DNA of 64,000 nucleotides, taken from a virus. Taxonomy: Duplodnaviria > Heunggongvirae > Uroviricota > Caudoviricetes. The stretch lies in the IMG/VR virus record IMGVR_UViG_3300021387_000463, positions 107,001 through 171,000 of that record. One strand, 5' to 3'. The position numbers were made by a program, and so were the translations under genes. Positions 8,268 to 40,141 of this stretch are shown here, piece by piece. Below the pieces are notes generated by a model that was not told where the DNA came from, searched no databases, and saw only the letters and a list, made by a program, of their open reading frames with translations. Positions within the stretch are counted from its first letter, which is position 1. Each line of letters begins with the position of its first letter.

Positions 8268-8383
8268 GCCGTGTTAGTGTAAGATGGACAGCACAGCGCA
8301 AACAAGGCGACCCCAGTTTGGTACCAGCATATGCGTAAAGGGGTGTTTAAGTACTAACGTTGGTTCGAATCCAGCACACGGCT
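8268..8383 (+). tRNA. oversized tRNA-like gene (116 nt), anticodon unresolved
   Basis: perfect 7-bp acceptor gccgtgt/acacggc and T arm gttgg/ttcgaat/ccagc; body of ~95 nt contains acagc and caagg motifs. Confidence 0.35.
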
Positions 8384-8406
8384 CTATGAAACTGAAAACT
8401 GACAAT

Positions 8407-8604
8407 ATGGAAAAATGTATGCGTTGTGGGCATGAACTAATTATCGGAGGTAATTTCATGCTCAGTGACTTCAACGGAGAGGATTTAGCTGAAGATGATG
8501 ACGCAATGGTAACAAATGCTCATTGTCCACACTGCGGAGCTAGTTATGAGATATATGATACTCCTGAATCTGAAAAGAAGAATTATCCATATTGGAGTAA
8601 CTAG
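8407..8604 (+). CDS. small zinc-ribbon protein (65 aa)
   Basis: MEKCMRCGHE...CPHCGAS; the N-terminal part of ORF 8284-8604 overlaps a tRNA-like gene and was trimmed. Confidence 0.45.
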   Translation: MEKCMRCGHELIIGGNFMLSDFNGEDLAEDDDAMVTNAHCPHCGASYEIYDTPESEKKNYPYWSN

Positions 8605-8679
8605 CGGTGTATCCCCTCTGCCTTATACGCTGTTGAAAGGGTAATTGGTCACATGTGGGTTCAAGCCCCACCATCGCCA
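8603..8679 (+). tRNA. tRNA-like (good acceptor/T arm, non-canonical body)
   Basis: acceptor agcggtg/catcgcc (6/7 paired); T arm gtggg/ttcaagc/cccac; no clean D or anticodon arm found. Confidence 0.3.
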
Positions 8680-8722
8680 CGAAAAGAAAGTTCTTTCGTC
8701 TGACGGTTTACGTCAATAACAA

Positions 8723-8869
8723 GGAAACATCCAGCAAATACAGAGTTGTTATTAGAAATTGCTACCGAAACGGTATGTGGGTTCGACTCCCACACGTCTA
8801 TCTTAACGAGGGCGTTGGTGAAATTGGTATACACGGCTATTGTAGAACAAAATGTTTCCGAATTTTTTT
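8723..8869. repeat. TACAGCAA element copy with internal T-arm hairpin
   Basis: ggaaacatccagcaa (8723-8737); internal gtggg/ttcgact/cccac; complementary atgtttcc (8852-8859) + gaatttttttat. Confidence 0.4.
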
Positions 8870-8924
8870 ATATCAAAACGTATACACTTTTTGAAATTCA
8901 TGATATTTATATAAAAAGAATATT

Positions 8925-9377
8925 ATGAATAGCAAATTAGAGTATATAAAGGAAAATTTGGATATTATCAATGAAATGATTAAAGATAATAGACCTAAGT
9001 TTGAGATAGCTAGGATTTTGGGCGTTAAGTATGATACATTAAATAAGAATCTTAAGCTATTAGGAATTGAGTATGCAGGTAATCCAAACAGAAAAGGAAT
9101 GAAACATGAGGATGGTAAAATTTCTGCATATGAATACTTAGGTACTAACAAATTTATAACTGCTCCTAAACTAAGAAATAAATTAATAGAAGAGGGTATC
9201 AAAGGGGAAATATGTGAAAGGTGTGGAAATAGTACCTGGATGGGTGAGAAAATACCATTAGAGTTACATCATATAAATGGAAATCACTATGATAATAGAT
9301 TAGAGAATTTACAAATTCTATGTCCGAATTGTCATATGCAAGTACATGGTTATTCTAACACTAAGCACAAAGAATAG
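8925..9377 (+). CDS. HNH homing endonuclease (150 aa)
   Basis: CERCGNS...HHINGNHYDNRLENLQILCPNCH. Confidence 0.7.
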   Translation: MNSKLEYIKENLDIINEMIKDNRPKFEIARILGVKYDTLNKNLKLLGIEYAGNPNRKGMKHEDGKISAYEYLGTNKFITAPKLRNKLIEEGIKGEICERCGNSTWMGEKIPLELHHINGNHYDNRLENLQILCPNCHMQVHGYSNTKHKE

Positions 9378-9379
9378 AT

Positions 9380-9466
9380 GGGGTTGTGGCGCAACTGGTT
9401 GAGACGCACCACACTTAGGATGTGGAAGTCGAGAGACTTGTGGGGGTTCGAATCCCTTCAACCCTA
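9380..9466 (+). tRNA. tRNA-Leu(TAG), type II
   Basis: anticodon stem ccaca/tgtgg with loop cttagga; variable hairpin aagtc-gaga-gactt; acceptor ggggttg/caaccct. Confidence 0.55.
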
Positions 9467-9492
9467 CAAAATTCTAAATAAATCTTAAAATA

Positions 9493-9524
9493 TTTGGTTA
9501 TATCAGATTTTTTTAGTATCTTTG
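9493..9524 (+). promoter_or_regulatory. Bacteroidetes-type promoter
   Basis: taTTTGgttatatcagatttttttagTATCTTTGca. Confidence 0.55.
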
Positions 9525-9550
9525 CATCACGAAATTGAAAAACAAATGTT

Positions 9551-9730
9551 ATGGGAAGAATACTTTTTATATTGTTTGTGGCTTTTGTAATGGTGGTTGT
9601 AATCATGTTGATTAACAACTATCTCAACAAGAGAAATGGGAATAGAATGTCAAAGGAAGAGAAGAGAAAGTCTTTCAACGATGACATCGAGGCAGTAGCC
9701 AAGGAAATTAAAATGAGAAGAGAAGCATGA
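9551..9730 (+). CDS. small membrane protein (59 aa)
   Basis: ATG 26 nt after the -7 box; hydrophobic N-terminus ILFILFVAFVMVVVIML; overlaps the next ORF by ATGA. Confidence 0.45.
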   Translation: MGRILFILFVAFVMVVVIMLINNYLNKRNGNRMSKEEKRKSFNDDIEAVAKEIKMRREA

Positions 9731-10014
9731 TGTGGTATTTTATAATTGGATTCTTTGTTCTCATTACGATAGTATTCATGATACTGTTGTTACGTGAGAT
9801 TAAGAATGCCCCATTGGTTCCAGATACAATGCCTTTCTTAAGAGGTGATTACGTTCCAACTGGAGAAGAGTATTTCAAATACTTTAATACCTTCTGCAAG
9901 AATTGCAAATTCTTTGATGGAACTGCTACATGTTTGGCAGAACATAGTTTTGGTATCATTAATGAGCATAACACAAACACATGCAAAACAGAAAGTTTGT
10001 TTGAGCCGAAGTAA
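9727..10014 (+). CDS. small membrane protein (95 aa), Cys-rich C-terminus
   Basis: ORF; TM helix FIIGFFVLITIVFMILLL. Confidence 0.5.
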   Translation: MMWYFIIGFFVLITIVFMILLLREIKNAPLVPDTMPFLRGDYVPTGEEYFKYFNTFCKNCKFFDGTATCLAEHSFGIINEHNTNTCKTESLFEPK

Positions 10015-10020
10015 AAGAAT

Positions 10021-10095
10021 GGTGGGGTAGCTCAGTTGGATAGTAGCAACTGCCTTCTAAGCAGTAGGTCGAGGGTTCGAGTCCCTCCCTCATCA
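10021..10095 (+). tRNA. tRNA-Arg(TCT)
   Basis: D arm ta-gctc-agttggata-gtagc; anticodon stem actgc/gcagt with loop cttctaa; T arm gaggg/ttcgagt/ccctc. Confidence 0.6.
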
Positions 10096-10274
10096 CGAAT
10101 GCGGTTCGAGTCCGCTTCAGTGACCGAGATTAGGTAAATTCAACAAAGCAGTGTTCGATTCTTGCTTATCTCCACACTATGAGTTTCCAATGTTAACTCG
10201 TGGGGATTATGGTTAAGTTGAGGTCAAAAAAACGGTGTATCTAGGATGCCCAGTTGCGCCTAGCTGCATCAGTA

Positions 10275-10430
10275 GGAACGTACAGCAACATTTACTTATT
10301 TAAAAGATTTTGTATTAGATTCGTAAATGAGGATAAGAGAAGCACTAAATCATAATTGCGAGGCACTTATCCATGCTCTTCGGAGCAAATGTCTAGTCAT
10401 GACAGTAAATTGACCGTTCCTTTTTCTTTT
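10275..10430. repeat. TACAGCAA element copy (no tRNA body)
   Basis: ggaacgtacagcaa (10275-10288) ... complementary cgttcc (10415-10420) + tttttctttt; interior has the UUCG hairpin gctc-ttcg-gagc. Confidence 0.35.
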
Positions 10431-10750
10431 GTCGCAATTGACACAAAACATAGTGGAAGCGTACAGCATGTACTTAATCATCTTGTTACTAACGATTGCT
10501 GATTTTAGAGGTTTCCAATTAAACACTTGCAAGGGCAACCAGTAAGCGTACCTCTCTAATCTTTAATCACACTAGGCAAAGGGTTGAGGTAACGTATTAC
10601 TCTTGTGAAGATAGTAGCAAAGGCATGTGAGTGTAGGATAGGCGAGAGACGTTGAAGCATCTTCGCAAGGAGTTGTGGAGTCAACCTTGAAATATCGCCC
10701 TCATCGTAATAGCTGAATCTCCAACTAGAATAAACCTACGCTTCCTTCAT

Positions 10751-10824
10751 GCACCCATAGCTCAATGGATTAGAGCTTTTGATTACGAATCAAAGGGTTG
10801 TAGGTTCGAGTCCTACTGGGTGTA
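10751..10824 (+). tRNA. tRNA-Arg(ACG)
   Basis: ta-gctc-aatggatta-gagc D arm; anticodon stem tttga/tcaaa with loop ttacgaa; T arm gtagg/ttcgagt/cctac. Confidence 0.6.
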
Positions 10825-10848
10825 CACACTTTTTTTAAGGAGAATGTT

Positions 10849-11211
10849 ATGGTTATAGAGATAAATAAGAAACTTATTCTCAATGTATTTGAACAATGTT
10901 TAGTTGTTAAAGATGGTAAGTTGTTCAATACAAATACTAACGAGTATGAAGCCATTGAGGGTGATAAAGTTAAGTTTTGTTTCACCAATTATTTCGGAGT
11001 AGATTGTTGGGTTAGTGGAACAGTCGATGGATATACTTGTAATAGAAGAATCAAGTTAAGGGGTGTCCATGATTTATATGCAATTAAACATGGCACTAAG
11101 AAAACCATCAAGCATTTATCTGTAATAACAGACAGCGATTGCGAAGATGATGAAACAAACGCTTATGATGAAATGATGAAAGCTGAGTGGGAAGCTGCCT
11201 TAAGCGAATAA
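10849..11211 (+). CDS. hypothetical protein (120 aa)
   Basis: ORF with ribosome-binding-site-like aggagaa upstream. Confidence 0.5.
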   Translation: MVIEINKKLILNVFEQCLVVKDGKLFNTNTNEYEAIEGDKVKFCFTNYFGVDCWVSGTVDGYTCNRRIKLRGVHDLYAIKHGTKKTIKHLSVITDSDCEDDETNAYDEMMKAEWEAALSE

Positions 11212-11232
11212 ATAAAAAAAGTTCTCAAAAAA

Positions 11233-11264
11233 TTTGGAATTCTCAAATATTATCTATATCTTTG
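11233..11264 (+). promoter_or_regulatory. Bacteroidetes-type promoter
   Basis: aaTTTGgaattctcaaatattatctaTATCTTTGca. Confidence 0.55.
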
Positions 11265-11688
11265 CAATGTCAAAAGGTAATAATGAAGTAAGAATTTAAG
11301 AAAAATACAAAAAAATTCGTCAAAAACGAAACTTTTTGAATTTAAATATATAATTATAGAAAAAAATCAATACATTTTATATTATGATTACAGTAGTTAA
11401 AAATATCGTCAAAGCCAATGCTAGTTCATTTACATCAAGTAAGTGGAATGATGCCATTGTATCTAATTTTGATGCAAAAGGTAAGCAACAGCTATGCGGT
11501 GATATGGAAGTCTGATATAAGATGTAAGAAAATCTAGGCACTTACTTCACTATATATTTCCCAAGCTGTTGATGAACTCCTAAAAAAAGTAATCAGCAGC
11601 TTTTTTTGTTTGCTTAACTTTTCTTAACTCAGAAAATTTGGATAATAAAAAAATTTTTAGTATCTTTGCAAAAAAAATTGTGTTCGGA

Positions 11689-12414: not shown

Positions 12415-12506
12415 GGATGCACGCTGCGAAGAGAAACATAGCAATATGCCTCTACGGAGAACGACGTGGAAATGCGATTCCGCAGGTTCGAATCCTGCTG
12501 CATCCA
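12415..12506 (+). tRNA. type-II-length tRNA-like (92 nt), anticodon unresolved
   Basis: perfect acceptor ggatgca/tgcatcc and T arm gcagg/ttcgaat/cctgc; body contains gaaacatagcaa, a TACAGCAA-motif variant. Confidence 0.35.
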
Positions 12507-12612
12507 CAAGTTTGTCTAGCTAGATTTGATATCGGTTGAAACTAGATGCCACACTTAAAGGTTTCTCTATAGTCCAAGGTAGAGAGTGAAAATGAATTGC
12601 TTGGGCGCATAT

Positions 12613-13075: not shown

Positions 13076-13158
13076 GGAGGCTGAGAGCACTGGAGAATAG
13101 TGTGCTATGCCATTGTTGAGGTGAGCATAGAAGATGGGTTCGATTCCCATAGCCCCCA
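13076..13158 (+). tRNA. tRNA-like (acceptor and T arm good, anticodon arm replaced by a 6-bp stem with 14-nt loop)
   Basis: T arm atggg/ttcgatt/cccat; acceptor ggaggct/agccccc; ctatgc...gcatag stem. Confidence 0.3.
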
Positions 13159-15951: not shown

Positions 15952-16088
15952 GGGTACACACAGCAAGTATAAATTTACACTTCAAACAGACTGTCAATTT
16001 GTGTAACGTGGGTTCGATTCCCACCCCCTCCGCAAAGAGAATTAAATAAACTGGAGGGGTTGAAATGTTGGTTTTATGTACCCTTTTA
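15952..16088 (+). ncRNA. permuted/split tRNA-Asp(GTC) unit inside a TACAGCAA element
   Basis: 5' gggtacacacagcaa (15952-15966); D-stem 3' strand ttca; anticodon arm acaga/ctgtcaa/tttgt; T arm gtggg/ttcgatt/cccac; acceptor 3' cccctcc-g (16025-16032); 20-nt linker; acceptor 5' ggagggg (16053-16059) + D-stem 5' tgaa; complementary tgtaccc (16076-16082) + ttttat. Confidence 0.4.
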
Positions 16089-16166: not shown

Positions 16167-16293
16167 GGTGACGTAGCTCAGTCGGTAGAGCACTAAAAAA
16201 TCAACGTGTTGCCTCGTGTGCGCAACCCACAGCAAATATTATGATGAATGGCTGTTAACCAAGGGGTCTGTGGTTCGAGTCCACACGTCACCG
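16167..16293 (+). tRNA. oversized tRNA-like gene (127 nt) with ~75-nt insertion after the D arm
   Basis: perfect acceptor ggtgacg/cgtcacc; canonical D arm ta-gctc-agtcggta-gagc and T arm tgtgg/ttcgagt/ccaca; insertion carries gcgcaac-CCACAGCAA and gctgttaacc. Confidence 0.35.
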
Positions 16294-16299
16294 CAACTT

Positions 16300-16372
16300 G
16301 CCTCGTTAGCTCAGTTGGTAGAGCGATTCTGTGGTATGGAATAGGTCGTGGGTTCAAGTCCCTCACGTGGCT
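16300..16372 (+). tRNA. tRNA-Thr(GGT)
   Basis: anticodon stem attct/ggaat with loop gtggtat; same acceptor/D arm family as 15745. Confidence 0.5.
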
Positions 16373-18006: not shown

Positions 18007-18669
18007 ATGATAGCTGCTTTTGATACATATTATTATAATGGATATTCTTATACTGTAGCTGGAGTATTTAAGTCATGGAATGATAAAGATATTGCTTACT
18101 ATGCTACTAGTAAGAGGATGTGTATTGACGCAGAATACAAACCAGGAGAACTATATAAGCGTGAGCTTCCATGCATTATGCAATGTTTGGCATTATTACC
18201 ACTTAAGGATATTACGCTTATTATGGTAGATGGTTTTGTATGGCTTTCTGAGGATGGTAAAACCTTAACGAAGGGTTTGGGTGCTCACCTTCAAGATGCA
18301 ATCTTTAAGAAATATGGTGAGAAAATTACTGTTGTTGGTGTCGCAAAGAACAGATACCATGTAAATATACCAGATTGCTATGATATAGAGCGTGGTTTGG
18401 AATCAGCAAAGCCATTGTTTGTAACATGTAGTGAACACTGTCTTGCAGAACATTATTCAAACATGGTCAAGATTATGTATGGTGATTATAGAATACCAAA
18501 AATCTTGAAAGATGTAGACACTAGGACAAGAGAACTTGGGCATGAACATTCTGAGGAGATAGAAGCAGAACTTGAAAAAGAATATAACTCCAAACCCATA
18601 GATATATCAATTGGTGATTTTGATGAATTTATGGCAACTTGTGAAAAAAATGGTTTTAAATATAGATAG
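18007..18669 (+). CDS. nfi: endonuclease V (deoxyinosine 3' endonuclease; also cuts inosine-containing RNA)
   Basis: RELP, MVDGFVW, GLGAHL and VVGVAKNR align with E. coli Nfi blocks REYP, FVDGHGI, GVASHFG and IGVAKKR. Confidence 0.6.
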   Translation: MIAAFDTYYYNGYSYTVAGVFKSWNDKDIAYYATSKRMCIDAEYKPGELYKRELPCIMQCLALLPLKDITLIMVDGFVWLSEDGKTLTKGLGAHLQDAIFKKYGEKITVVGVAKNRYHVNIPDCYDIERGLESAKPLFVTCSEHCLAEHYSNMVKIMYGDYRIPKILKDVDTRTRELGHEHSEEIEAELEKEYNSKPIDISIGDFDEFMATCEKNGFKYR

Positions 18670-21003: not shown

Positions 21004-21087
21004 GCTTGAAGACATATGAATAGGTAACATCTACGAGACCCACAAGGGTTGACGGAATAGTAGGTTCAAATCCTACCGCAAGCACCA
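21004..21087 (+). pseudogene. tRNA 3' fragment ending in encoded CCA (T arm gtagg/ttcaaat/cctac, acceptor 3' cgcaagc-a-cca); 5' half degenerate
   Basis: no complementary acceptor 5' strand (gcttgaa pairs only 5/7); CCA is directly followed by the TACAGCAA 5' motif. Confidence 0.3.
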
Positions 21088-21088: not shown

Positions 21089-21230
21089 GGAAACAGACAG
21101 CAATGGTTATTTTTTTAATAAGCCTTGTAAGCAGTGGGTCATGGGTTCGAATCCCATCGAGGGGTGTAAGCTCCTTGTAGCTCAGTCTGGTCTAGAGCAA
21201 CTTAAAATGTTAAAAACGTTTCCGATTTTT
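21089..21230 (+). ncRNA. permuted/split tRNA-like unit inside a TACAGCAA element
   Basis: 5' ggaaacagacagcaa; T arm atggg/ttcgaat/cccat; acceptor 3' cgagggg-t; 5-nt linker gtaag; acceptor 5' ctccttg (all 7 pair, 2 G-U) + complete D arm ta-gctc-agtctggtcta-gagc; 3' acgtttcc gattttt. Confidence 0.35.
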
Positions 21231-21248: not shown

Positions 21249-21809
21249 ATGGCAGTAGGTGTAATTATCGCAAGGCTTCAGCCAATACACAAGGGACACC
21301 TTGAGTTGGTCAGACAAGCTCTTAATGAGAATGACGAGGTTCTTATCCTTGTTGGTTCAGCAGACAAACTGAATAAGCGTAACCCAATTCCTATCGCAAT
21401 GCGTTTGGATTTGGCAAAGAGAGCAATAACTGAGGAGTTTGGTGAGGGCGCTGGCAAAGTTAAAGTAATGCCACTCAATGACCTTACAGATGAATCAGAT
21501 AATTCTCATGATTGGGGATTTTATCTCTACAGCCATATAGTTGGAATCACTAAGTCACTTGAATTTACCATTTATTATTCAGATGGATTTGAGATTATCA
21601 TGCAGTGGTTTCCTCCATTCATTACAAGAGACTTCGTTTCTTTTAAATTGAATGCTAGAGGTGCAATCCACAACAACTTGTCTGCAACAAAGGTAAGACA
21701 GATGATTCTCAAGGGTGATGAAAATGCTCTCGCAGAGGCAGTACCAACTTGTGTTGCTGAAAATGCGGTAATATTGAAACATTTCATTGAAGCATTTCAA
21801 GATGTATGA
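21249..21809 (+). CDS. nadM: nicotinamide/nicotinate mononucleotide adenylyltransferase (NadM-type NMNAT)
   Basis: ARLQPIHKGHLELV = (H/T)xGH nucleotidyltransferase motif in the archaeal/phage NMNAT context GRFQPxHKGH. Confidence 0.6.
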   Translation: MAVGVIIARLQPIHKGHLELVRQALNENDEVLILVGSADKLNKRNPIPIAMRLDLAKRAITEEFGEGAGKVKVMPLNDLTDESDNSHDWGFYLYSHIVGITKSLEFTIYYSDGFEIIMQWFPPFITRDFVSFKLNARGAIHNNLSATKVRQMILKGDENALAEAVPTCVAENAVILKHFIEAFQDV

Positions 21810-22237: not shown

Positions 22238-22780
22238 CAAAACATAATGGGCTTGAATGGTATAGAACGTTATGCGTCTGGTAAAGGACAAGCAGTGGGC
22301 ATACACTTCAAATAGCAAAAAAAACAAACGCAGAGAACGTAGATTCTCCTGCTTATGAGTACGCTATAGCTGCGTAAGCATGAGCCGAGAGGCTAGGCTC
22401 TTAGGAACAGAACATCCTAGCAAACTTTTTTTAGCTTCGTGCTAGATGGTGGAATCGGTGACTCTAGTCATCCCCCAAGTTTTCCTTGTTTTCTCAAAAT
22501 AAGGTGGCGGATTTTCGACAGCAATGTCAACTTTCCAATTTAAGCTTGTATAATCCTTTATGGGATGGTAATTGTGACGAGGGTTCGAATCCCTCCAGGT
22601 CCACTTAATAATCAGTCAGGGTTGGATGATGAAGTAAACTTTTACAGTAAAGTTATGCTATATTAGGATAAAAGTCATGTATTAATCTGTATAACATACA
22701 TGGAAGGGAATCTTTCATAAGTACATTGAAGAGGTTCGTGTAGCTGATTATTTTATAAAAGAAAAAAAGTTCTTTGAAAA

Positions 22781-23088: not shown

Positions 23089-23332
23089 TGAAAAAAAGTT
23101 CCTAAAAAATTTGGAATTCTCGAAAATTATCTATATCTTTGCAAAGTGAAAAGAAATAAATGAGGAAACTAACAGCAAACATTTAAACATCAAACTGTAA
23201 ATTTGAACAACGTTTAAAAAGTTTCCGTTTTATTATATAACATAGCGGCAGAGTGAAACAGATTACACGCTAGGCTCATAACCTAGAAACACCAAGTGCG
23301 ACTCTTGCGTGCCGCCACTTGATTTGGAAGAT

Positions 23333-23617: not shown

Positions 23618-24440
23618 AACATTGTAGGCTTCGGCTGAAAATGAGGAGTTTGGCTAGCTTTCGTAGCCAAATGAAGGATAATCCAGTGATGGGACTAAAT
23701 GTGATGTGAAATTGACCATAGTAGCATTGCAGATATGTAGGGGCAACCCTATGTATTTCACTGAAAAGCATATGGCACGGTCTACGCTGGGGGTAACACC
23801 CTAGGCGTAGGTTCTCAAGGGCTGAATGTCTTTGAGTGAGTGGTAACACAATAGATTGCCATATGGAACTCGATGCAATAGTCACCAGTTGGCGTGTTGG
23901 GTTCAGTTATATGCTAGTCTCAAGTTGAAATGCTTGAGAACCGTAAGGCTGATAGTATGTAATAGCAATTGGACTTGTGGTGAGTCTTTGTAGGGAGGCG
24001 ATTTCGTGGGTCGTGCTCAAAAGGCACGAATGCGATGGGTCGCACCTCGTCTTCCAATGGTCGTGCAAATTTCCAAAATTTGATTTGAAATATGGTTCAA
24101 ATGTTTATTTAGCAAAAGTGTGCGACACTAGGCAGCTAAAATGCACTTATCCTTCTGCAATATGAAGGGGTTGGGGACTCGCAAGGAATCCAACAAGAGA
24201 GTAAAAGTACTCGTCTGAGTCAACAGGAGGCATCCTGTGAATCCGCAAGAGCTTGGCGAAGAACTGAAATCTATGATGCTGTACCGAAAGGTTTAAACTA
24301 GTAAGTGTTTGGTTGTTTTCGCAAAACCTCCGTGCATGGTGTCTACGGCTATCGTAAGGTAGCGTGTGAACAGCAACGTCCAACCGTTGTGAAATGACAT
24401 CTACAACAAGACAATGTTCTCAGTCTTTTGTTTTTACATA

Positions 24441-24564
24441 GGGAGTTAGCTTAATGGTCAGAGTAATTTTGTTGCGATTTAAGCTACAACACAGTCTCGA
24501 CTTCGGAACAGATTGATGCTTTAACTGATAATGAAAAAATGGTGGTTCGAGTCCATCACTCCCT
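24441..24564 (+). tRNA. oversized tRNA-like gene (124 nt)
   Basis: acceptor gggagtt/cactccc (6/7); T arm ggtgg/ttcgagt/ccatc; body contains ctgataa (Ile-type loop) and a UUCG hairpin. Confidence 0.3.
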
Positions 24565-24725
24565 GCGTACCGTTTTGGGGCACTTTTTGAGTAAACAAAG
24601 TGTTAAACTTTGGCACTAGATAGCTACTAGGTGTTATGGGTTGGAAAGTTTGAATCCCTTGGGGGTTTGTAGAATGTAATGTTTTTAACCAACTGTTTTT
24701 GATACGGCTTAATATTTAATTATAT

Positions 24726-25052
24726 ATGAGAGACTTTACTTATAGTGGTTTCGAAAACCAAGAGGCATGTAACCATTTAAGAAATGGAGAAACTTGTAAG
24801 GTTACTGGTATTGGAAACTCTATGACTCCCATATTAAAGTCGAGGCAAGCAGTAATATGCGAACCAGTAAAAGATGATACTAAACTTAACAAACGAGACA
24901 TTGTACTTTGTAAAGTAAGGGGTCATCATTATTTGCATTTAATACATGCCATCAAGAATGATAATGAATACCTTATTGGTAATAATCATGGTCATATGAA
25001 TGGTTGGGTATCCAAAAAGCAAATCTATGGTAAAGTCGTAGAAGTTCTCTAA
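24726..25052 (+). CDS. S24-like peptidase paralog (108 aa)
   Basis: GNSMTPILKS...VLCKVRG; homologous to 263-685. Confidence 0.5.
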   Translation: MRDFTYSGFENQEACNHLRNGETCKVTGIGNSMTPILKSRQAVICEPVKDDTKLNKRDIVLCKVRGHHYLHLIHAIKNDNEYLIGNNHGHMNGWVSKKQIYGKVVEVL

Positions 25053-25106
25053 GGTCACAAAAGGCAAATTAGGGTTCGATTCCCTAGTGACTGACAATAT
25101 GTTTAT

Positions 25107-25616: not shown

Positions 25617-25677
25617 AGGAAGCTTACAGCAATGTAAAAAGACCGCAACTCTTGGCCTAAGACTAGCTTCCGATTTT
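25617..25677. repeat. TACAGCAA element, minimal copy (no tRNA body)
   Basis: ggaagcttacagcaa ... complementary agcttcc + gattttt. Confidence 0.4.
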
Positions 25678-27141: not shown

Positions 27142-27226
27142 GGGCATATGGCTGAGTGGTCGATAGCGGCAGTCTCTAAAACTGTTATGGCGAAAGTCAT
27201 CGTGGGTTCGAATCCTACTATGCTCA
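27142..27226 (+). tRNA. amber suppressor tRNA, anticodon CTA, type II (Ser/Leu/Tyr-like body)
   Basis: acceptor gggcata/tatgctc all paired; D arm tg-gctg-agtggtcgata-gcgg; anticodon stem gcagt/actgt with loop ctctaaa at the expected position; long variable arm; T arm gtggg/ttcgaat/cctac. Confidence 0.5.
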
Positions 27227-27454
27227 CTACGGCTGGTGTATCCATAGTGGATGCTGAAATAAGTGAGACAGCGCAAGCCATGTAAGAAGTGGCAGATGAA
27301 GCAGCAATGCGGTGCGAGGATTAGTCCCTTGCCCTAGTTCCTTGATGGTTAAGAGGATACCTTCATGGTTGATACAGGTAAACCTAATTTACTATTATGA
27401 TAGAATATCTCAAAAAATTAGAAGCAACGATGTGCAAGCATAAATGGGAGGATT

Positions 27455-28729: not shown

Positions 28730-29158
28730 ATGGCAAAAGAGAAAGTTACAATAAAGTATAAAACAGCTAATACATTTGCTGACATCTTCAATGATAAGAG
28801 TGGCACCTTCTATGAGGTGTTCTTAAAACCAACAAAGGGAAATACAGTTAAGAGATATTTGGCTATGGGAACAATAAGTTCTTATGGTGATAGAAGATGT
28901 GTATGCCAATGCTACTCAAAGGTTGGACGACCAGTTTTTAGTTGGTACAATGGCATAAAATCTTTTGAAGTCAATAAGGATGCTGAGAAAGGTTTAGAGA
29001 TAACATCTGCAAAGGTTCAGTGCGACTATCACCTTTACACGGCATATGTCTCAAGGGAAGATGCTTTTCATGCAGCCATGCATGGTCTTAAGTTACAGAA
29101 ACTTAAGATTAACAAGCAAATTATCAAGTTACAGAACGATTTATATTCAGAAGAATAA
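28730..29158 (+). CDS. hypothetical protein (142 aa)
   Basis: ORF. Confidence 0.5.
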   Translation: MAKEKVTIKYKTANTFADIFNDKSGTFYEVFLKPTKGNTVKRYLAMGTISSYGDRRCVCQCYSKVGRPVFSWYNGIKSFEVNKDAEKGLEITSAKVQCDYHLYTAYVSREDAFHAAMHGLKLQKLKINKQIIKLQNDLYSEE

Positions 29159-29649
29159 TGGAGATAGAAGAATTAGCAAAGAGAGTGGCAATAGCCTTAA
29201 TGGATAAGAACTATAAGATTGCTACTGCTGAAGAATGTACAGCTGGGTTGATTGGTGCTGCAATTGCAAGCCAAGACTATGCTCAGAGGTGGTACAAGGG
29301 TACAGTTGTGGCATACGATGAAACAATCGCTTGCAAGGTTCTTGATGTCCAAGACTATACCATTAAGAGAAATGACTTTGTTAGTCCTCAAGTGGTTAGT
29401 CAGATGGCTTTGACAACACTGTATAAGTTTGATGTTAACGTAGCCCTTGCTATCACTGGTTATGTAGATGGATATGGAAGCACGGATATTCCAGCTGGTG
29501 ATGTTCAAATATGTGTTGCTAGACTTGTCAACAAATCAGTGTCATTTAGCTATAAGAAGGTAAGAGTTAAGAACAAAGAGAGAGGTAAGAACATTGAGGA
29601 AGCAATCAAGGAGTCTCTTATCCTCATAATGGAAACAATAGTAGGGTAG
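29158..29649 (+). CDS. pncC: CinA C-terminal domain protein / NMN deamidase (PncC-like)
   Basis: KIATAEECTAGLIGAAIAS matches the conserved CinA_C block (..ATAESCTGGL..). Confidence 0.55.
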   Translation: MEIEELAKRVAIALMDKNYKIATAEECTAGLIGAAIASQDYAQRWYKGTVVAYDETIACKVLDVQDYTIKRNDFVSPQVVSQMALTTLYKFDVNVALAITGYVDGYGSTDIPAGDVQICVARLVNKSVSFSYKKVRVKNKERGKNIEEAIKESLILIMETIVG

Positions 29650-29651: not shown

Positions 29652-30035
29652 ATGGAAAAATGTCCGTTTTGTGAAATAGAAAAAAGAATTGATGAATCTA
29701 GAATCATTTATCAAGATTCGACTTGGATTGCGATATTAGACAATTATCCAGTGTCAGAAGGTCATACTCTCTTAATACCAAAGAGACACTGTAAAAGCTA
29801 TTTCGATTTAAATTTTATTGAACTTGAGAGTGTCGGTGTTACAATTGGTATTGTTAAGAGAATATTAGACACAAAGTATAAGCCAGATGGTTATAACATT
29901 GGAATAAATTGTGGCGAGGCTGCTGGTCAAACCGTTATGCATTGTCACATCCATATTATACCTCGTTATAATGGGGACTGTGAAAATCCTAGAGGTGGCG
30001 TAAGGAGAGTAATTCCAGAGAAACAGCATTACTAA
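29652..30035 (+). CDS. HIT-family hydrolase
   Basis: histidine triad HCHIHIIPR; SEGHTLLIPKRH. Confidence 0.6.
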   Translation: MEKCPFCEIEKRIDESRIIYQDSTWIAILDNYPVSEGHTLLIPKRHCKSYFDLNFIELESVGVTIGIVKRILDTKYKPDGYNIGINCGEAAGQTVMHCHIHIIPRYNGDCENPRGGVRRVIPEKQHY

Positions 30036-32640: not shown

Positions 32641-32712
32641 ATCTCCTTCGTCTATCGGTTAGGACACGTGGCATCGCAAGTCGGAAGAGAGGTTCGATTC
32701 CTCTAGGAGATT
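32641..32712 (+). tRNA. tRNA-like (72 nt), anticodon arm irregular (loop caucgca)
   Basis: perfect acceptor atctcct/aggagat; T arm agagg/ttcgatt/cctct; D arm tc-gtc-tatcggttag-gac. Confidence 0.35.
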
Positions 32713-33069
32713 CAATAAAGTGATTTGGCATAATTTAAGGTAAATACTGCATGTGAAGTAAGCCATGTGGGATAGTGGTTTCAAATCCACTTGCACCATT
32801 GGAGACGATGGGTTCACAAACAATATAATTAGCTGTTGCGGACGTAATTTGATAAAGGTCTACCACAGGGCAGAGAAAGCAATAGGAGATAATTACGTAA
32901 TAAGACCTATGGGCGTACTCAGTTAAGAGGGGATAATGGTTAAAACTAGCCTGCCCCTAGCAGCTAATTTACCAAAAGTCATGGTGGTGTAGCACGTGAT
33001 ACTCAATAAGACTTCGGTTAACCATCATAGTTCGTGAGACATACGTATATCGTTTATAGCGAACAAACT

Positions 33070-33208
33070 GTGCGGTTCGTCTAGTGGTTTAGGACAACGT
33101 TTAAAAAAGTTTTTTAACGTTTCCGTTAGGAAATAGACAGCAGATGTATTATTGAAAAATTATGCATTCCAAGCCGTAAACAGAGGTTCGAATCCTTTAC
33201 CGCACTCT
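33070..33208 (+). tRNA. oversized tRNA-like gene (139 nt), paralog of 32641 with ~85-nt insertion
   Basis: perfect acceptor gtgcggt/accgcac; same D arm tc-gtc-tagtggtttag-gac; insertion has the palindrome aacgtttaaaaaagttttttaacgtt and hairpin tttcc-gtta-ggaaa followed by TAGACAGCAG. Confidence 0.3.
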
Positions 33209-36124: not shown

Positions 36125-36475
36125 TCGTCTTAAAATTGAATTCTCATGATTATTTGCAACGAAACTTGCCAACTATACTACAAATGTGATTGTAGGAACT
36201 TACGCCAAAGATGTGTCTTTGATATGGGTATTCCTTTTGACAAGGAAGAGGATGATGATGAATTCATTGATAGGCTTACTTATTGAAAGTAACGATAAAA
36301 GTCTTAGGATTGAGATATAAACAAATATAATGATTAAAATTAATGAATGATAGAATAATAAAATTAATGTAGAGGTTTATATCGATTTCCGTTTGTTTCA
36401 CCTACTTACACGTGGAGAGATTGGGAAGCATGGACTTCGTGGCTAATGTGGCAGCATTAGCCATTTAAAGAGAAA

Positions 36476-36754: not shown

Positions 36755-38058
36755 AGAAAATTGTTTTATTTATGCTTGCAATGATTGCTTTTGGTTCTTG
36801 TTCAAAGCATGATTTTGCAGAGTATTCTTACGCTGAACAGCAGAAGGATAAGTTCGAGTCTGCATTTGTTGAGGAGTTCGGAACACCAGCTTCTGACCAA
36901 GATTGGGGTTTTGACAACGTAACATTGTTTGACTACACGCAAGCAAGTACACGTGGCCATGATGTGAATCGTAATCAGTGGCAAGGAAAATACATTATTC
37001 CTGCAAATGTAACTGCTGAAGAAGAGCAAGCTGTTCTTGACAAACTTGCAGAAGGTTCTGGTGACAGAGATTCTAAGATGATTGAGGATTGGCCTAATTT
37101 CTTTGTTTACCATGTTCATAAGGGAACAGATGTTTATTACGACCATGCTGGACAAAGCATTGGCGTTGCATCAGACCATATGAATCACTTACAAGCAGTG
37201 TTCCCAGATGGTACAATGGACCATATCAACGACTTCAACAGTGGTCAGCAGAATGCTAATTGGTGGACGATTGAGGGTGCAACTCTTATGTTGAATTCGT
37301 CAACATCAGATTTCGCTTACCACAATTCAACCGACAGCAAATATCATAACAACTATGTTGTGATTGATGGTGCTACTATTGGTTATCCTGGTTTCTATTA
37401 CATTTGTTTCGATTTTTTGGCAAATGGTGACATTGAGCAGCCTAGCAACAAGAATATGGGTGTTGATAGAAACTACAACTACACTGATTGGATTATTCGT
37501 ATTAGTCCAGCTGTTTTTGATATGACTGGTGCTGTTCGTATTATTGCTGAAGACTTGGGTGCTGACCAAGGAAGTGACTTTGACTACAATGATGTTGTAT
37601 TCGATGTAAAGCTTGCTAATGATTGGGATGCATCTTGGGGTTCAAATGGAGATAACAGACTTAAGGCTTATATAACACTACGTGCAGCAGGTGGTACTCT
37701 TCCTCTTACAGTGGCTGGGGTTGAGGTACACAGCAAGTTTGGCGTTGCCGCAAACCATATGCACAATACAAATGCTTATGGCGAAGGAATCAATTATAAC
37801 AGTGGCGTTAGTTTCGTAGCAGACCTCGGTCCTGCTGAATGGAACTTACAAGGAAGTGACATTGCTAAGAATCTTATTCCTATTGTCGTAACATACAAGA
37901 ATGGAGAGACAGCAACTCTTAGCTGCGAGACTGGTAAAGCTCCAGAAAAGATTTGTGTTAAGCCTGATTTCAAATGGCAAGAGGAATACATCAACATTAG
38001 AAAGAAGTATCCTTTGTTCTCTGCTTGGGTTCTCGACAAAACTGTTAATTGGCAGTAA
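36751..38058 (+). CDS. lipoprotein, paralog A (435 aa)
   Basis: signal peptide + lipobox FGSC; shared motifs DFDYNDVVFDV and KICVKPDFKWQ with 38111-39355. Confidence 0.6.
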   Translation: MKKIVLFMLAMIAFGSCSKHDFAEYSYAEQQKDKFESAFVEEFGTPASDQDWGFDNVTLFDYTQASTRGHDVNRNQWQGKYIIPANVTAEEEQAVLDKLAEGSGDRDSKMIEDWPNFFVYHVHKGTDVYYDHAGQSIGVASDHMNHLQAVFPDGTMDHINDFNSGQQNANWWTIEGATLMLNSSTSDFAYHNSTDSKYHNNYVVIDGATIGYPGFYYICFDFLANGDIEQPSNKNMGVDRNYNYTDWIIRISPAVFDMTGAVRIIAEDLGADQGSDFDYNDVVFDVKLANDWDASWGSNGDNRLKAYITLRAAGGTLPLTVAGVEVHSKFGVAANHMHNTNAYGEGINYNSGVSFVADLGPAEWNLQGSDIAKNLIPIVVTYKNGETATLSCETGKAPEKICVKPDFKWQEEYINIRKKYPLFSAWVLDKTVNWQ

Positions 38059-38110
38059 ACTATCAACAGCCACACTGTACCCCCACAAGGGGACAATGTG
38101 GCTTTAATAT

Positions 38111-39355
38111 TTGTTTAATATGCATAGAATCTTATATTATATCATATTATTGGCTGTATTTATCTCTTGTGAAAAGCAAATGACTATATCACAAGAGTCT
38201 CAAAACATATCTAGTTATAACGAAGACTTTAGGAATAAAGTTGGAAATCCTAGTGGTTCACAAGAATGGGGAGATTGGTGTCTTCACATTCCGTCATTCA
38301 CTAGGTCTGTTAATAGCGATACTACAACATGGGATAGATACAGAGAAGTCACATATCCATCTGATGAAGATATAAACGATATTATATCTACGTTTAATGA
38401 ATACTATGATGGTATTAATATGGTAACATTACCAGAAGGGGATTATTGGGTTAAAACAATATATAAGGATACTTTACACCTTTATATATCTCCAGATTGG
38501 CATGGTGCTTGGTTTTATGCATATGAGAAAATGCCTACTATAAGCGTATATAGTCAATCTGAGAAAAGATATGAACCAATAGAAGGTATTGATTCATTAG
38601 TTCTCATTGAAAACCTTGATGAATATGATAGTATAATGCCTCAATTCGCATATTTCAATGAGTTATACAGTGAAAATCATTTTGAACAAAGAACTATTGA
38701 ATACAATGGTATATACTATGTTGGATTTGATTTTTACGCTGATGGCTTTATAGAGGGTGGTGGAGACGATTACTTTATCATGAATGTTGTAGAAAGAGAC
38801 TACATATATCGTGATATGATAATCATGTTAATACCAGCATATAAATTAGGACAAGAAGAGGTGTATGATGAAAAAAGGGTAATGTGCGAAGATTTGTCAA
38901 ACAATCATGATTTTGATTTCAATGACCTTGTATATGATGTTGCTATCGTCAAATTAGATGACGTTCTAAAGACTAAAATCACAGTGCAAGCAGTTGGTAC
39001 AAATCAATCGATAATAATAGCCACTAAGGAGGCACATGAATTATTCGGTACACAAGAGGCAATTATTAACACTAACCCAAGTATGCCTAGAAGAGAACCA
39101 CAGTCTTTCTATATTGATGAAGTTATAGAGGATATAAGGGATATTGAAGTCTCTACATTTTACAATAACAAAATCTACTTTCTTGGAAATGAAAAGGGAG
39201 AACCAACACAGAGAATATGTGTAGATACTAACACAAAATGGGGAAATGAAGGATATGTTTTCTGGATAACTTATCCTAGATTTAAGGAATGGGTCAGCGA
39301 CCCTTCAGTTACTGATTGGGAAAAATATTGCAATACCGAGCTTGTTTTTAAATGA
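38111..39355 (+). CDS. lipoprotein, paralog B (414 aa)
   Basis: signal peptide + FISC; DFDFNDLVYDV and RICVDTNTKWG. Confidence 0.6.
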   Translation: MFNMHRILYYIILLAVFISCEKQMTISQESQNISSYNEDFRNKVGNPSGSQEWGDWCLHIPSFTRSVNSDTTTWDRYREVTYPSDEDINDIISTFNEYYDGINMVTLPEGDYWVKTIYKDTLHLYISPDWHGAWFYAYEKMPTISVYSQSEKRYEPIEGIDSLVLIENLDEYDSIMPQFAYFNELYSENHFEQRTIEYNGIYYVGFDFYADGFIEGGGDDYFIMNVVERDYIYRDMIIMLIPAYKLGQEEVYDEKRVMCEDLSNNHDFDFNDLVYDVAIVKLDDVLKTKITVQAVGTNQSIIIATKEAHELFGTQEAIINTNPSMPRREPQSFYIDEVIEDIRDIEVSTFYNNKIYFLGNEKGEPTQRICVDTNTKWGNEGYVFWITYPRFKEWVSDPSVTDWEKYCNTELVFK

Positions 39356-39413
39356 AAGCAACATTATATTTATTATATACATGGGTAAATAATAAGTATA
39401 AAGGTAAGACAAA

Positions 39414-40010
39414 ATGATAATCGGTTCAACTAACTCCTTAACATATAGCCGCCCAAGCAGTTGGTGGCACAATATGCTATGGTGGCGTACTAGACACCAA
39501 GAAGTAGACTATGAGCTACAATATAGGTTCTATGGTGTAAGATTATTCGAATTCAAATTATACGTAAACAAGAATAAACGAATAGTAGTTAGAAGTGAGA
39601 ATGCGATATACTCTATATTCTCATTCTATGAGATATTGGATTTCTTCAATAAGATGGGTGATGTAACTCTTTTAATTACTCTCAATGAAACACTTGATGA
39701 ATACATGTTGGATTATAATCATGCGATTGAGAAGAAGTTTATAGAATCTTGTCGTATTATGGAAACCATCTACAAAGATATAATGTTTTGTGGAGGCTAT
39801 AGAGAATATGATGAAAAGCAGTTATATGAATTTGAATGGGAAAAGAAGAATGGCATGCCTAACATACTAGCTCCAGATGACTGGTCAGTAGCATATAGAT
39901 TTGTTCAGAAATGGTGTCCATTCCTACTCAAGAAGCTCAATAGGTACTACATTAAGAAATATGAGTATTTCAAAGGATTCTTAATGCTCAGTTACGTAAA
40001 CAGACGTTAG
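39414..40010 (+). CDS. hypothetical protein (198 aa)
   Basis: ORF. Confidence 0.5.
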   Translation: MIIGSTNSLTYSRPSSWWHNMLWWRTRHQEVDYELQYRFYGVRLFEFKLYVNKNKRIVVRSENAIYSIFSFYEILDFFNKMGDVTLLITLNETLDEYMLDYNHAIEKKFIESCRIMETIYKDIMFCGGYREYDEKQLYEFEWEKKNGMPNILAPDDWSVAYRFVQKWCPFLLKKLNRYYIKKYEYFKGFLMLSYVNRR

Positions 40011-40021
40011 GAATATTTATA

Positions 40022-40141
40022 TTAGGGGATAGTGTAATGGTAACACGCTGTAATTTCCGTTACCTTTGAGGTAACATTACAGCAATCATTAGGAAAATAG
40101 CTTTTGGTGCCAGTATTGGAGGTTCGAATCCTTCTCCCCTA
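40022..40141 (+). tRNA. oversized tRNA-Gln(TTG)-like gene (120 nt) with insertions flanking the anticodon arm
   Basis: perfect acceptor tagggga/tccccta; D arm ta-gtg-taatggtaa-cac; anticodon arm gttac/ctttgag/gtaac; preceded by gtaatttccg and followed by ATTACAGCAA; T arm ggagg/ttcgaat/ccttc. Confidence 0.35.

Follow-up and report, generated by a model that had tools for sequence, protein, structure and literature searches.

The window analysed in this work is a 64,000-nucleotide stretch (64 kb; positions 107,001 to 171,000) of IMG/VR virus record IMGVR_UViG_3300021387_000463, a phage of the Caudoviricetes with a genome of about 410 kb, and all readings given below come from sequence comparison. 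ARAGORN reports 43 transfer RNA (tRNA) genes and one transfer-messenger RNA (tmRNA) gene in the window, all on the plus strand and most of them confirmed by Rfam. In the tRNA region, about 40 ordinary tRNA genes lie beside a set of disrupted tRNA genes, which are either interrupted by a short insert or written in circularly permuted order, and these disrupted genes are the subject of this paper. In the window, 58 copies of the T-loop motif GGTTCGANTCC were counted where 1.5 would be expected; roughly twelve of them are not part of any called tRNA. The closest relatives are IMG/VR contigs of 401–412 kb (e.g., IMGVR_UViG_3300028048_000038 and 3300032007_000003), together with shorter contigs; related loci are cited below by working labels of the form L012. 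Deposited phage genomes gave no nucleotide match to the window and a single weak protein match, the target being an uncultured 635-kb phage that is unannotated, and a protein anchor (18007–18669) used as a query retrieved no related loci.

Six loci had been singled out in the original prediction as tRNA-like genes whose bodies are too long for ordinary tRNAs. These loci are real: plus-strand elements of 92–137 nucleotides (nt), each combining an acceptor stem with a T arm, were found within 1–2 nt of the positions proposed, namely at 8268–8383, 12415–12506, 16167–16293, 24440–24565, 33070–33206, and 40023–40142. The acceptor stem is a perfect Watson–Crick helix of 7 base pairs (bp) in every case, and a 5-bp T stem with a GTTCGANTC loop directly abuts the acceptor strand at all six loci. 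D arms, noted earlier at several loci, are present in five, the element at 12415 having none, and the UUCG hairpin described in an insertion is present in 24440–24565. The Rfam tRNA model (RF00005) runs end to end over 16167–16293 (45 bits) and 24440–24565 (40.8 bits), where the anticodon arm falls within 65–67 unaligned nucleotides; the loci at 8268, 12415, 33070, and 40023 are not reported by it, and the standard mode of ARAGORN calls none of the six genomic loci. Some details had to be corrected. The motif TACAGCAA, thought to recur in several insertions, has an exact copy only in 40023–40142, the corresponding words being CACAGCAA at 16167 and GACAGCAG at 33070. The supposed insertion motif gctgttaacc is really the anticodon loop CTGTTAA (Asn GTT) in the 3′ exon of 16167–16293. 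Likewise, the pair 32641–32713 and 33070–33206, taken for a directly visible insertion or deletion, has a Glu-type D arm in common, but the acceptor stems (ATCTCCT versus GTGCGGT) and other parts differ.

The proposal that these loci carry novel short intervening sequences fits four of the six and does not explain 8268 and 12415. In the structural test applied here, the sequence was read backward from the T stem as variable loop, anticodon stem (3′ strand), and a loop of 7 nt, while the 5′ strand was composed of the bases following the D arm and those preceding the loop. Removal of one contiguous block of 49–64 nt turns the loci at 16167 (Asn-GTT), 24440 (Ile-GAT), 33070 (Gly-TCC), and 40023 (Gln-TTG) into canonical tRNAs. 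All four insert sites, which range from 28/29 to 31/32, interrupt the 5′ strand of the anticodon stem and not the anticodon loop. A restored anticodon arm with a fully paired 5-bp stem, a 7-nt loop, U33, and a purine at position 37 was obtained at four of the five loci bearing a D arm; when the inner region was shuffled, such a stem with U33 and R37 arose in 0.7–2.2% of trials per locus (35 of 5000 at 16167).

The interrupted tRNA-Asn(GTT) gene (16167–16293, plus strand) consists of a 5′ exon (16167–16194), a 54-nt insert at 28/29 (16195–16248), and a 3′ exon (16249–16293), its anticodon stem being split as CT + TGG-CTGTTAA-CCAAG. The insert forms a helix between GTTGC (16208–16212) and GCAAC (16222–16226), which is followed by CC-ACAGCAA, and the predicted exon junction would join GAGCACT to TGGCTGTTAACC. 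The anticodon stem covaries across the insert in relatives (CTTGG/CCAAG, CTAGG/CCTAG, and GCGGA/TCCGT), while the anticodon is always GTT. In a relative whose flanks are 78–89% identical, the gene itself is 98% identical; an exact word taken from the insert, used as a query, gave no match.

Two further interrupted genes are built in the same way. The tRNA-Gly(TCC) gene (33070–33206, plus strand) has its 5′ exon at 33070–33099, a 64-nt insert at 29/30 (33100–33163), and its 3′ exon at 33164–33206, with the stem split as ACG + GC-ATTCCAA-GCCGT; in the insert, GTTTCC (33119–33124) is followed by the loop GTTA and by GGAAATAG-ACAGCAG (33129–33143), and GGACAACG would be joined to GCATTCCAAGCC. Its orthologs in L012 and L013 are 95–98% identical, and the orthologous position in L014 (9906–9978) is taken by a 73-nt element with neither the insert nor a usable anticodon arm. 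A nested element was also observed in the orthologous slot of L017 (9564–9673), where a 5′ acceptor strand and D arm are followed by an inner core and then by a T arm and 3′ acceptor strand; the core is itself a permuted tRNA-like sequence (T arm, acceptor hairpin, and second D arm), and the element as a whole has no anticodon arm. The tRNA-Gln(TTG) gene (40023–40142, plus strand) comprises a 5′ exon (40023–40050), a 49-nt insert at 29/30 (40051–40099), and a 3′ exon (40100–40142), with the split stem CTG + GC-TTTTGGT-GCCAG. Its insert pairs GTTACC (40059–40064) with the first part of GGTAAC-ATT-ACAGCAA (40070–40085), and the predicted junction lies between ACACGCTG and GCTTTTGGTGCC. No insert-less near-identical paralogs of the interrupted genes occur in the window, and an insert-less ortholog of 40023 was sought in more distant relatives, where the gene is absent.

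The interrupted tRNA-Ile(GAT) gene (24440–24565, plus strand; 5′ exon 24440–24471, 3′ exon 24525–24565) represents a second insert class. Its 53-nt insert (24472–24524), placed at 31/32 or 30/31, contains two covarying helices capped by C(UUCG)G and lacks the ACAGCAA motif; the stem is split as TTTTG + CTGATAA-TGAAA, and splicing would join TAATTTT(G) to (A)CTGATAATGAAA. In an alignment of six orthologs covering the tRNA stems and the two insert helices, 95.5% of cells are paired and nine pairs change on both sides, a result equalled by none of 500 shuffles. Covariance across related phages, which had been suggested as a check, is found in the split anticodon stem of 16167 and in the insert helices of 24440. 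Since the stems covary, the random decay of insertions that would have marked these genes as pseudogenes is excluded.

Several observations concern the surroundings of this locus. In more distant phages (L004:13450–13480, L005:13718–13748, L021, L022, and L023), a 31-nt core of its insert (CAGTCTCGACTTCGGAACAGATTGATGCTT) recurs with 100% identity. There it lies within a leader RNA of about 190 nt behind a promoter-like TAnnTTTG box; next comes an 85-nt tRNA-like gene in which the anticodon arm is replaced, and both are located just upstream of the RNA ligase gene of those phages. In the window, positions 23993–24426 (plus strand) give a full-length match to the GOLLD model (Rfam RF02032; 73.6 bits, E = 2.4e-17, below the gathering score of 150), which stops 14 nt before the interrupted gene and looks like a divergent GOLLD-like RNA; GOLLD RNAs adjoin tRNAs in phages.

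Alternative ways of reading the oversized genes were set aside. The intron mode of ARAGORN proposes introns for five loci, but the anticodon and the position shift between orthologs (Arg/Asn, SeC/Asn, Cys/Leu, and Gly/Ile), and it was not used because orthologs receive different anticodons. Mini reading frames of the tmRNA type (GCA...UAA in 16167 and 8268) are inconsistent between loci, and by eye the frame at 8268 begins within the D stem.

The second kind of disrupted gene is circularly permuted. In four units, the 3′ half of a tRNA (anticodon loop, T arm, and 3′ acceptor strand) is encoded upstream of its 5′ half (5′ acceptor strand and D arm), with both halves on one strand, a short linker between them, and a cloverleaf that can be rebuilt; these units begin at 4361, 8723, 15953, and 21089, and those at 4361, 15953, and 21089 yield a canonical anticodon arm and cloverleaf upon un-permuting. 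When the interrupted genes were spliced and the permuted genes un-permuted, the standard mode of ARAGORN called every construct (Asn, Ile, Gly, Gln, Thr, Ile, and Asp).

In the permuted tRNA-Thr(TGT) gene (21089–21224, plus strand), the leader GGAAACAG-ACAGCAA is followed by the 3′ exon (21122–21164), the linker TGTAAG, the 5′ exon (21171–21202), and a trailer with GTTTCC (21218–21223) and a T-run. Its elements read GC-CTTGTAA-GCAGT-GGGTC, T arm, CGAGGGG, TGTAAG, and CTCCTTG-TA-GCTC...GAGC-A-ACT. Joined at 29/30, where 33070 and 40023 are also broken, the exons give a canonical tRNA-Thr(TGT), and the predicted junction would connect GAGCAACT with GCCTTGTAAGCAG. The anticodon stems of permuted Thr genes in relatives (ACTGC, ACGGG, ACGGA, and ATGGA) are each matched by their 3′ strand, and the anticodon TGT is constant in 11 such genes from diverged phages. 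In the permuted tRNA-Ile(GAT) gene (4361–4479, plus strand), behind a promoter-like TAnnTTTG box, the leader GGAAACAT-ACAGCAA precedes the 3′ half (4376–4438, then ACCA), the linker, the 5′ half (from 4448), the trailer ATGTTTCC, and a T-run; the break is in the D loop, and the acceptor stem covaries between the halves in relatives (GGCGTGA/TCACGCT versus GGGGAGG/CCTCCCC). The permuted tRNA-Asp(GTC) gene (15953–16083, plus strand) runs from the leader GGTACAC-ACAGCAA through the anticodon arm ACAGA-CTGTCAA-TTTGT, the T arm, CCCCTCC, a 21-nt linker, GGAGGGG (16053), and TTGAA to the trailer GTACCC, with its break in the D-loop region; its acceptor GGAGGGG/CCCCTCC is replaced by GGGTGGG/CCCACCC in an ortholog, and the Rfam beta_tmRNA model of two-piece tmRNA matches part of the unit (16008–16060). 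The fourth unit (8723–8859, plus strand) is a permuted class-II tRNA-like gene with the loop ATTAGAA (Leu-TAG type), the leader GGAAACAT-CCAGCAA, the trailer ATGTTTCC, a variable-arm hairpin (ACCG-AAA-CGGT), and an acceptor stem paired at six of seven positions.

Permuted genes also recur beyond the window. A scan of IMG/VR for the leader followed by 92–122 nt and GTTTCC retrieved 49 stretches on many contigs. Under a strict criterion (acceptor paired at 7/7 with at most one GU), 27 of 72 units bearing a T arm, from 19 loci of many IMG/VR contigs, are permuted genes, compared with 4 of 72 in a reversed control. Where a simple model resolves the junction, it falls at 29/30 (12 cases), 28/29 (3), 27/28 (1), or upstream of the anticodon stem (11). 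The tRNA-Gly(TCC) with the loop ATTCCAA is interrupted in the window (33070) and permuted in other phages, with the same junction. Our literature search turned up no description of split or permuted tRNA genes from bacteria or phages, nor of the module described next, and the permuted genes and this shared module appear to be undescribed so far.

The two kinds of disrupted genes are connected by an RNA module, in which a leader GGRAAC pairs over 7 bp with a trailer GTTYCC; two variable bases separate the leader hexamer from ACAGCAA, which is unpaired. Three of the four inserts, all four permuted genes, and another six small RNA units have this module in common. In the inserts (16167, 33070, and 40023), it appears as a hairpin whose 3′ strand is followed by 2–3 bases and ACAGCA(A/G). 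When TACAGCAA is extended to the 15-nt leader motif GGRAAC-NN-ACAGCAA, 11 copies are found on the plus strand of the window and none on the minus strand, against 0.21 expected. Eight of the nine free-standing leaders tested have a Watson–Crick complement of at least 7 bp to their own GGRAAC part 40–140 nt downstream, the ninth (21089) having the 6-bp GTTTCC, and in seven of these nine copies the trailer is followed by a T-run. Leader and trailer pair as in permuted tRNA genes: over the window and related loci, the exact complement of a leader's own hexamer lies nearby at 44 of 58 distinct sites, compared with 8.7% for shuffled hexamers. The helix occurs in 11 variants, including GGAAAC, GGGAAC, GGAAGC, GGAACG, GGTAAC, and GGAATC. 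The seventh base pair, which was not imposed by the selection, covaries and is formed in 22 of 28 cases as AU, UA, CG, or GU, and the eighth position is unpaired.

The lone inserts and the permuted units re-closed by an artificial loop fold into one architecture. From the exon ends inward, it consists of an A/U-rich helix between the spacers, an asymmetric bulge with ACAGCAA on the leader strand, and the 7-bp helix; the spacer complementarity recurs with other sequences in other phages (TTAAAAA/TTTTTAA, TAAAC/GTTTA, and AATTA/TAATT). The module is a closed hairpin in the interrupted genes and is built from the 5′ and 3′ ends of the transcript in the permuted ones; circular permutation of a single RNA architecture relates one arrangement to the other.

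Enzymes that could act on such RNAs are encoded in the same window. An RNA ligase gene lies at 60973–61908 (plus strand; Pfam PF09414, PHROG 548; no PDB or NCBIfam match), and its product is inferred to be a candidate sealer of the exon junctions; among the members of the PF09414 family are ligases acting on nicked double-stranded RNA. A gene for a CCA-adding tRNA nucleotidyltransferase (57187–58581, plus strand) is present as well, CCA not being encoded in most tRNA genes read in the window, and a metallophosphoesterase-like protein is also encoded there.

The explanation that we favour, at roughly even confidence, is that the disrupted tRNA genes form a system of the phage with a dedicated RNA signal, and that their transcripts would be matured by cutting and ligation. 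In the scheme suggested by the sequences, the module would hold the two exon ends together and be recognised by one or more nucleases; the leader and trailer, or the insert, would be removed, and an RNA ligase, possibly the phage's own (60973–61908), would close the remaining nick, which lies in the anticodon stem or the D loop. With breaks at 28/29 to 31/32, the product before joining would be a nick within a duplex. Permuted genes give no one-piece tRNA unless the RNA ends are joined, and in their precursors RNase P and RNase Z would open the 4–22-nt linker between the acceptor strands, as is known for permuted tRNAs in algae (PMC4090602) and for YrlA of M. smegmatis (PMC4201824). The phage CCA enzyme would then complete the 3′ end, and the products would be ordinary tRNAs. 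Because the two kinds of gene encode one RNA in circularly permuted forms, a single common reaction most likely serves both.

The setting of this system can be narrowed to some extent. The tmRNA gene (22249–22604, plus strand), which lies directly 3′ of a tRNA-Ile(GAT) gene and encodes the tag AENVDSPAYEYAIAA (GENIDSPAYAMAIAA in the L014 ortholog), indicates a bacterial host. TAnnTTTG boxes (TATCTTTG) are found at 4323–4330 and about 23134–23141, some 30 nt 5′ of the leaders of the units at 4361 and 23164; we take TAnnTTTG to be the −7 promoter element of Bacteroidota, in which case the boxes would point to a Bacteroidota host. A broader version of our explanation is held more tentatively and falls somewhat short of even confidence: a clade of very large phages, probably infecting Bacteroidota, would possess its own protein-based or ribozyme-based pathway of tRNA splicing and circularisation, acting through a signal other than the bulge-helix-bulge (BHB) and serving both kinds of gene. 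The same pathway would possibly also make small circular RNAs from units without a tRNA.

Several observations weigh against maturation by cutting and ligation. The window also contains intact genes for the tRNAs Asn-GTT, Ile-GAT, Gly-TCC, Thr-TGT, and Asp-GTC, so that decoding does not obviously depend on the disrupted copies. The anticodon differs among orthologs at 24440 (GAT here versus GTT in four of five orthologs), at 40023 (TTG here versus GTG in L012 and L013), and at 8723 (TAG here versus TGT in L025 and L026, where the loop is ATTGTAA). The exon ends lie 5–19 nt from the module on one side and 8–20 nt on the other, with no conserved boundary sequence. Due to the T-run after the trailer, the end-to-end helix may also, or only, be a terminator or a stabilising clamp. 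No Pfam domain of a splicing endonuclease (EndA/Sen) was found among the 50 open reading frames (ORFs) of at least 120 amino acids in the window, and RNA ligases are common in phages as tRNA-repair enzymes. A loose criterion for permuted genes (six of seven pairs within 45 nt) has an estimated chance rate of about 45%, and the strict set alone is to be counted.

Six further units with a leader and a trailer but no complete tRNA, all on the plus strand, belong with these points. In the unit at 2412–2489, directly upstream of a tRNA-Gln(CTG) gene, GGGAACAT-ACAGCAA pairs with TGTTCCC, followed by a T-run, around an A/U-rich cargo with no tRNA part. The unit at 10275–10421, kept in L025, L026, L027, and L029, runs from GGAACGT-ACAGCAA to CGTTCC and a T-run and encloses a 118-nt cargo with a UUCG hairpin, again with no tRNA part. 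Another, at 25618–25671, is kept in L012–L016 and has a short cargo between GGAAGCTT-ACAGCAA and AGCTTCC, which a T-run follows. Isolated tRNA arms form the cargo of two units: a T-arm-like hairpin only (GATAG TTCGAGC CTATC) at 5976–6061, ending in AGTTCCC and T8, and a lone anticodon-arm-like hairpin (TCAAA-CTGTAAA-TTTGA) at 23164–23226, behind a TAnnTTTG box. The sixth unit (40237–40346) begins 1 nt past the encoded CCA of the tRNA-Met gene at 40150–40235 and is closed by 8 bp between AGGGAACT and AGTTCCCT around a degenerate class-II tRNA-like RNA with a T arm.

Such units would be expected if the module were a general handle, and this leads to an explanation without splicing that we regard as possible, though rather unlikely. 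Here the module would bind a protein, and the mature RNAs would be tRNA-shaped with an extra arm, which is closed in the interrupted genes and open, in two pieces, in the permuted ones, where RNase P and RNase Z would cut the acceptor linker; like YrlA or two-piece tmRNA, they would act as tRNA mimics tethered to a partner protein and not as decoders. Retained extra arms or regulatory or decoy RNAs, the other options of the original prediction, may also account for the oversized loci. The interrupted and permuted forms would then be the same three-dimensional object with no need for ligation, and the module around non-tRNA cargo (2412, 10275, 23164, and 25618), the ACAGCAA bulge between two helices, which resembles a protein site, the intact tRNAs with the same anticodons, and the anticodon drift in three families would all fit. 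YrlA of M. smegmatis is indeed cut by RNase P and CCA-added in vivo to give a two-piece RNA (PMC4201824), and the Rfam YrlA model aligns to the T arm, acceptor hairpin, and D arm of the unit at 21089 (local search, E = 1.6e-5). However, that match reaches 31.9 bits against a threshold of 69 and leaves the model's middle stem unmatched, the YrlA motif GNCGAAN0-1G was not seen by eye in the leader of this unit, and no TROVE/Ro60 gene was found among the 50 window ORFs scanned. YrlA RNAs also lack an anticodon arm (PMC4201824), whereas block removal in the phage genes gives one that follows every rule (5 bp, 7-nt loop, U33, and R37) and is held by compensatory changes. The constancy of TGT in the 11 permuted Thr genes likewise argues against a mimic that does not decode.

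It is quite improbable, in our view, that the leader–trailer helix with its T-run is a clamp and intrinsic terminator only, with the disrupted tRNA copies being non-functional recombination relics. The module inside three tRNA genes would then be a by-product of recombination in a fast-evolving array rich in homing-endonuclease genes, and the array does contain three HNH genes and one DUF559 gene, several orphan T arms, and a 33070 slot that is highly variable among relatives, including the version with no usable anticodon arm. A T-run after eight of ten trailers (no clear run at 40237 and in the permuted gene at 15953) and the promoter-like TAnnTTTG boxes before the units at 4361 and 23164 are what a terminator and its transcription unit would show. 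In relics, however, one would not expect compensatory substitutions on both sides of the break to preserve the acceptor, D, anticodon, and T stems among many diverged phages, nor the inserts to be more conserved than their flanks. The hairpins in 16167, 33070, and 40023 are not followed by a T-run and thus are not terminators there, and neither a clamp nor a terminator accounts for the invariant ACAGCAA.

A known intron type, either cut at a BHB as in archaea and eukaryotes or self-splicing as in group I, is highly improbable: non-canonical positions and permuted genes sharing one processing motif are a hallmark of BHB splicing in archaea and some algae (PMC4090602), and group I introns are present in bacterial tRNA genes (PMC13011429), but the 4-bp central helix that two 3-nt bulges enclose in a BHB cannot be formed at any of the five junctions tested (best score at most 3/4, even with each site slid by one base), the inserts are short (49–64 nt) and in the stem, Rfam shows no group I, group II, or small ribozyme (window at the gathering threshold; bases 1–41000 at E ≤ 0.5), no splicing-endonuclease domain occurs among the 50 window ORFs, and the tmRNA gene points to a bacterial host. 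A hammerhead-like ribozyme was rejected too, as there is no CUGAUGA core, and the similar words UGAUGAA (16167) and CUGAUAA (24440) lack essential bases, the latter being the anticodon loop.

Other tRNA-like elements of the window do not follow the interrupted or permuted pattern. The oversized gene at 8268–8383 (plus strand), with an acceptor stem, a 3-bp D arm, a T arm, and a 64-nt body, has a 91%-identical copy in a relative (L029:808–921). No single-block removal yields a canonical anticodon arm, and an exhaustive one-block deletion evaluated with ARAGORN gave hundreds of permissive solutions that are inconsistent among orthologs. The same procedure gave zero solutions for 12415, 24989, and 3602. 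The acceptor stem and T arm element at 12415–12506 (plus strand; z = −3.4) has in its body, which lacks a D arm, a leader-like motif, GAGAAACATAGCAA (12431–12444), the complement of which (GTTTCTC, read from the sequence) lies outside the element at 12561–12567. A 105-nt element at 24989–25093 (plus strand), consisting of a T arm and a GU-rich acceptor-like stem, is kept in six relatives (77–98% identity), two of which carry an additional block of 9–10 nt. Orphan T arms or tRNA-like pieces that ARAGORN does not call are located at 3602–3693 (32.1 bits with the tRNA model over 3602–3694), 8603–8678, 10100–10123, 13134–13157, and 21060–21087, the last of which ends in an encoded ACCA immediately 5′ of the leader of the permuted Thr gene. 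The 356 nt between two tRNA-like genes at 32714–33069 are non-coding and contain stable-looking hairpins, including GACTTCGGTTAACC with a UUCG loop. A suppressor-type tRNA gene with the anticodon CTA is present at 27142–27227 (plus strand); TAG is the stop of 9 of the 38 long plus-strand frames, and thus the window gives no clear sign of TAG reassignment.

Protein-coding genes are interspersed with the array. Four nuclease genes amid the tRNA genes (1525–2400, 4617–5600, 7447–8169, and 8925–9377), one DUF559/REase-like and three HNH, are likely free-standing homing endonucleases and may be drivers of array rearrangement. The tRNA region also includes a gene for an endonuclease V-like protein (18007–18669, plus strand; Pfam PF04493, E = 8.8e-7), enzymes of this family being able to cut at inosine. 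Genes related to nicotinamide adenine dinucleotide (NAD) are found at 21249–21809, 29158–29649, 41514–42077, 58993–59568, and 62647–63840; the set consists of a cytidylyltransferase-like (NMNAT-type) protein, CinA, NUDIX, an isochorismatase/nicotinamidase-like protein, and NAPRTase, and suggests a phage NAD+ salvage pathway. A HIT protein gene (29652–30035) and a DHFR gene (45515–46048) were also identified.

Archaea and eukaryotes are the textbook setting for the enzymatic splicing of tRNAs and for tRNA genes that are permuted or split; C. merolae and Thermofilum pendens are examples of organisms with disrupted tRNA genes. In the bacterial world, to our knowledge, group I is the only well-established kind of tRNA intron, and bacteria and their viruses are thought to have only such self-splicing introns in their tRNAs. 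In the T4 Pnkp/Rnl1 repair system (polynucleotide kinase-phosphatase and RNA ligase), a phage RNA ligase rejoins the halves of tRNAs that were cut in the anticodon region. In that case a host defence nuclease has cleaved a normal tRNA, whereas here the discontinuity is written into the gene. The genes described here resemble the disrupted tRNA genes of archaea and algae (PMC4090602) in that interrupted and permuted forms coexist, the permutation junction is an intron position (29/30 here), leader–trailer pairing rebuilds the intron structure, and a short linker separates the 3′ and 5′ acceptor strands. They differ in residing in a phage genome with a bacterial host, in having no BHB motif, in having no EndA-type gene seen in the window, and in the signal itself, where ACAGCAA is bulged out beside a helix of 7 bp and the distance to the exon ends varies.

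With YrlA (Rfam RF02553; PMC4201824) and two-piece tmRNA (beta_tmRNA, tmRNA_permuted), the permuted genes share the order of T arm, closed acceptor stem, and D arm, as well as ends paired in a long stem, and the covariance models, which were built on permuted tRNA-like orders, partly match the units at 21089 and 15953 and so lend independent support to the permuted reading; as in YrlA, the acceptor loop could be opened by RNase P, followed by CCA addition. In contrast to YrlA, the phage units score below the model threshold, have a complete canonical anticodon arm and another end-stem motif, and have no Ro60 gene nearby in the window, and the interrupted forms, which have the normal gene order, set the system apart from both. 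The group I introns of bacterial tRNA genes (e.g., PMC13011429) are at least 200 nt long, self-splicing, and placed in the anticodon loop after a U, with a conserved P3–P9 catalytic core, whereas the short stem inserts found here show no such core.

The closest precedent is found in the Lak megaphages, where 'enigmatic introns' were described in the tRNAs Phe-GAA, Gly-TCC, Thr-TGT, and Tyr-GTA by Devoto et al. 2019 (PMC6784885), whose predictions used eukaryotic settings and came with no mechanism; a 2026 survey counts intron-bearing tRNAs in jumbo phages (PMC13037316), and we found no paper on the mechanism of megaphage tRNA introns. Compared by published description alone, both systems occur in very large phages of the gut or rumen and consist of tRNA genes that are oversized and unclassifiable, the inserts are strongly conserved between genomes in both, and the isotypes Gly-TCC and Thr-TGT overlap. 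The Lak introns were predicted in the anticodon loop (by tRNAscan in eukaryote mode), and one is said to contain a tRNA, whereas the break described here is in the 5′ anticodon strand or the D loop, and the helix-plus-ACAGCAA module and the permuted genes are defined here. A separate observation concerns L034, a more distant 236-kb contig with five tRNA genes of 151–167 nt (7925–8079, 8629–8795, 9572–9722, 10706–10858, and 16220–16370). Their inserts belong to a different class of about 80 nt, located in the anticodon loop, with a hairpin of the type CAGAGTAAACTG first and a T-arm-like hairpin inside, and are reminiscent of the Lak 'intron that encodes a tRNA'.

The 'enigmatic introns' of megaphages have been without an explanation since 2019, and the anatomy presented here offers predicted exon boundaries, a covarying RNA signal, and a nearby candidate ligase. 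The question thereby becomes testable, through junction reads, circles, and a protein binding the ACAGCAA module. Since standard tRNA finders miss disrupted genes, the tRNA repertoires of huge phages are under-counted. The module may also be usable as a tool for RNA circularisation or RNA scaffolding. If the broader reading is true, the bacterial world would have its first pathway of this kind, and these very large phages would have independently invented the job done by the splicing endonuclease in archaea and eukaryotes.

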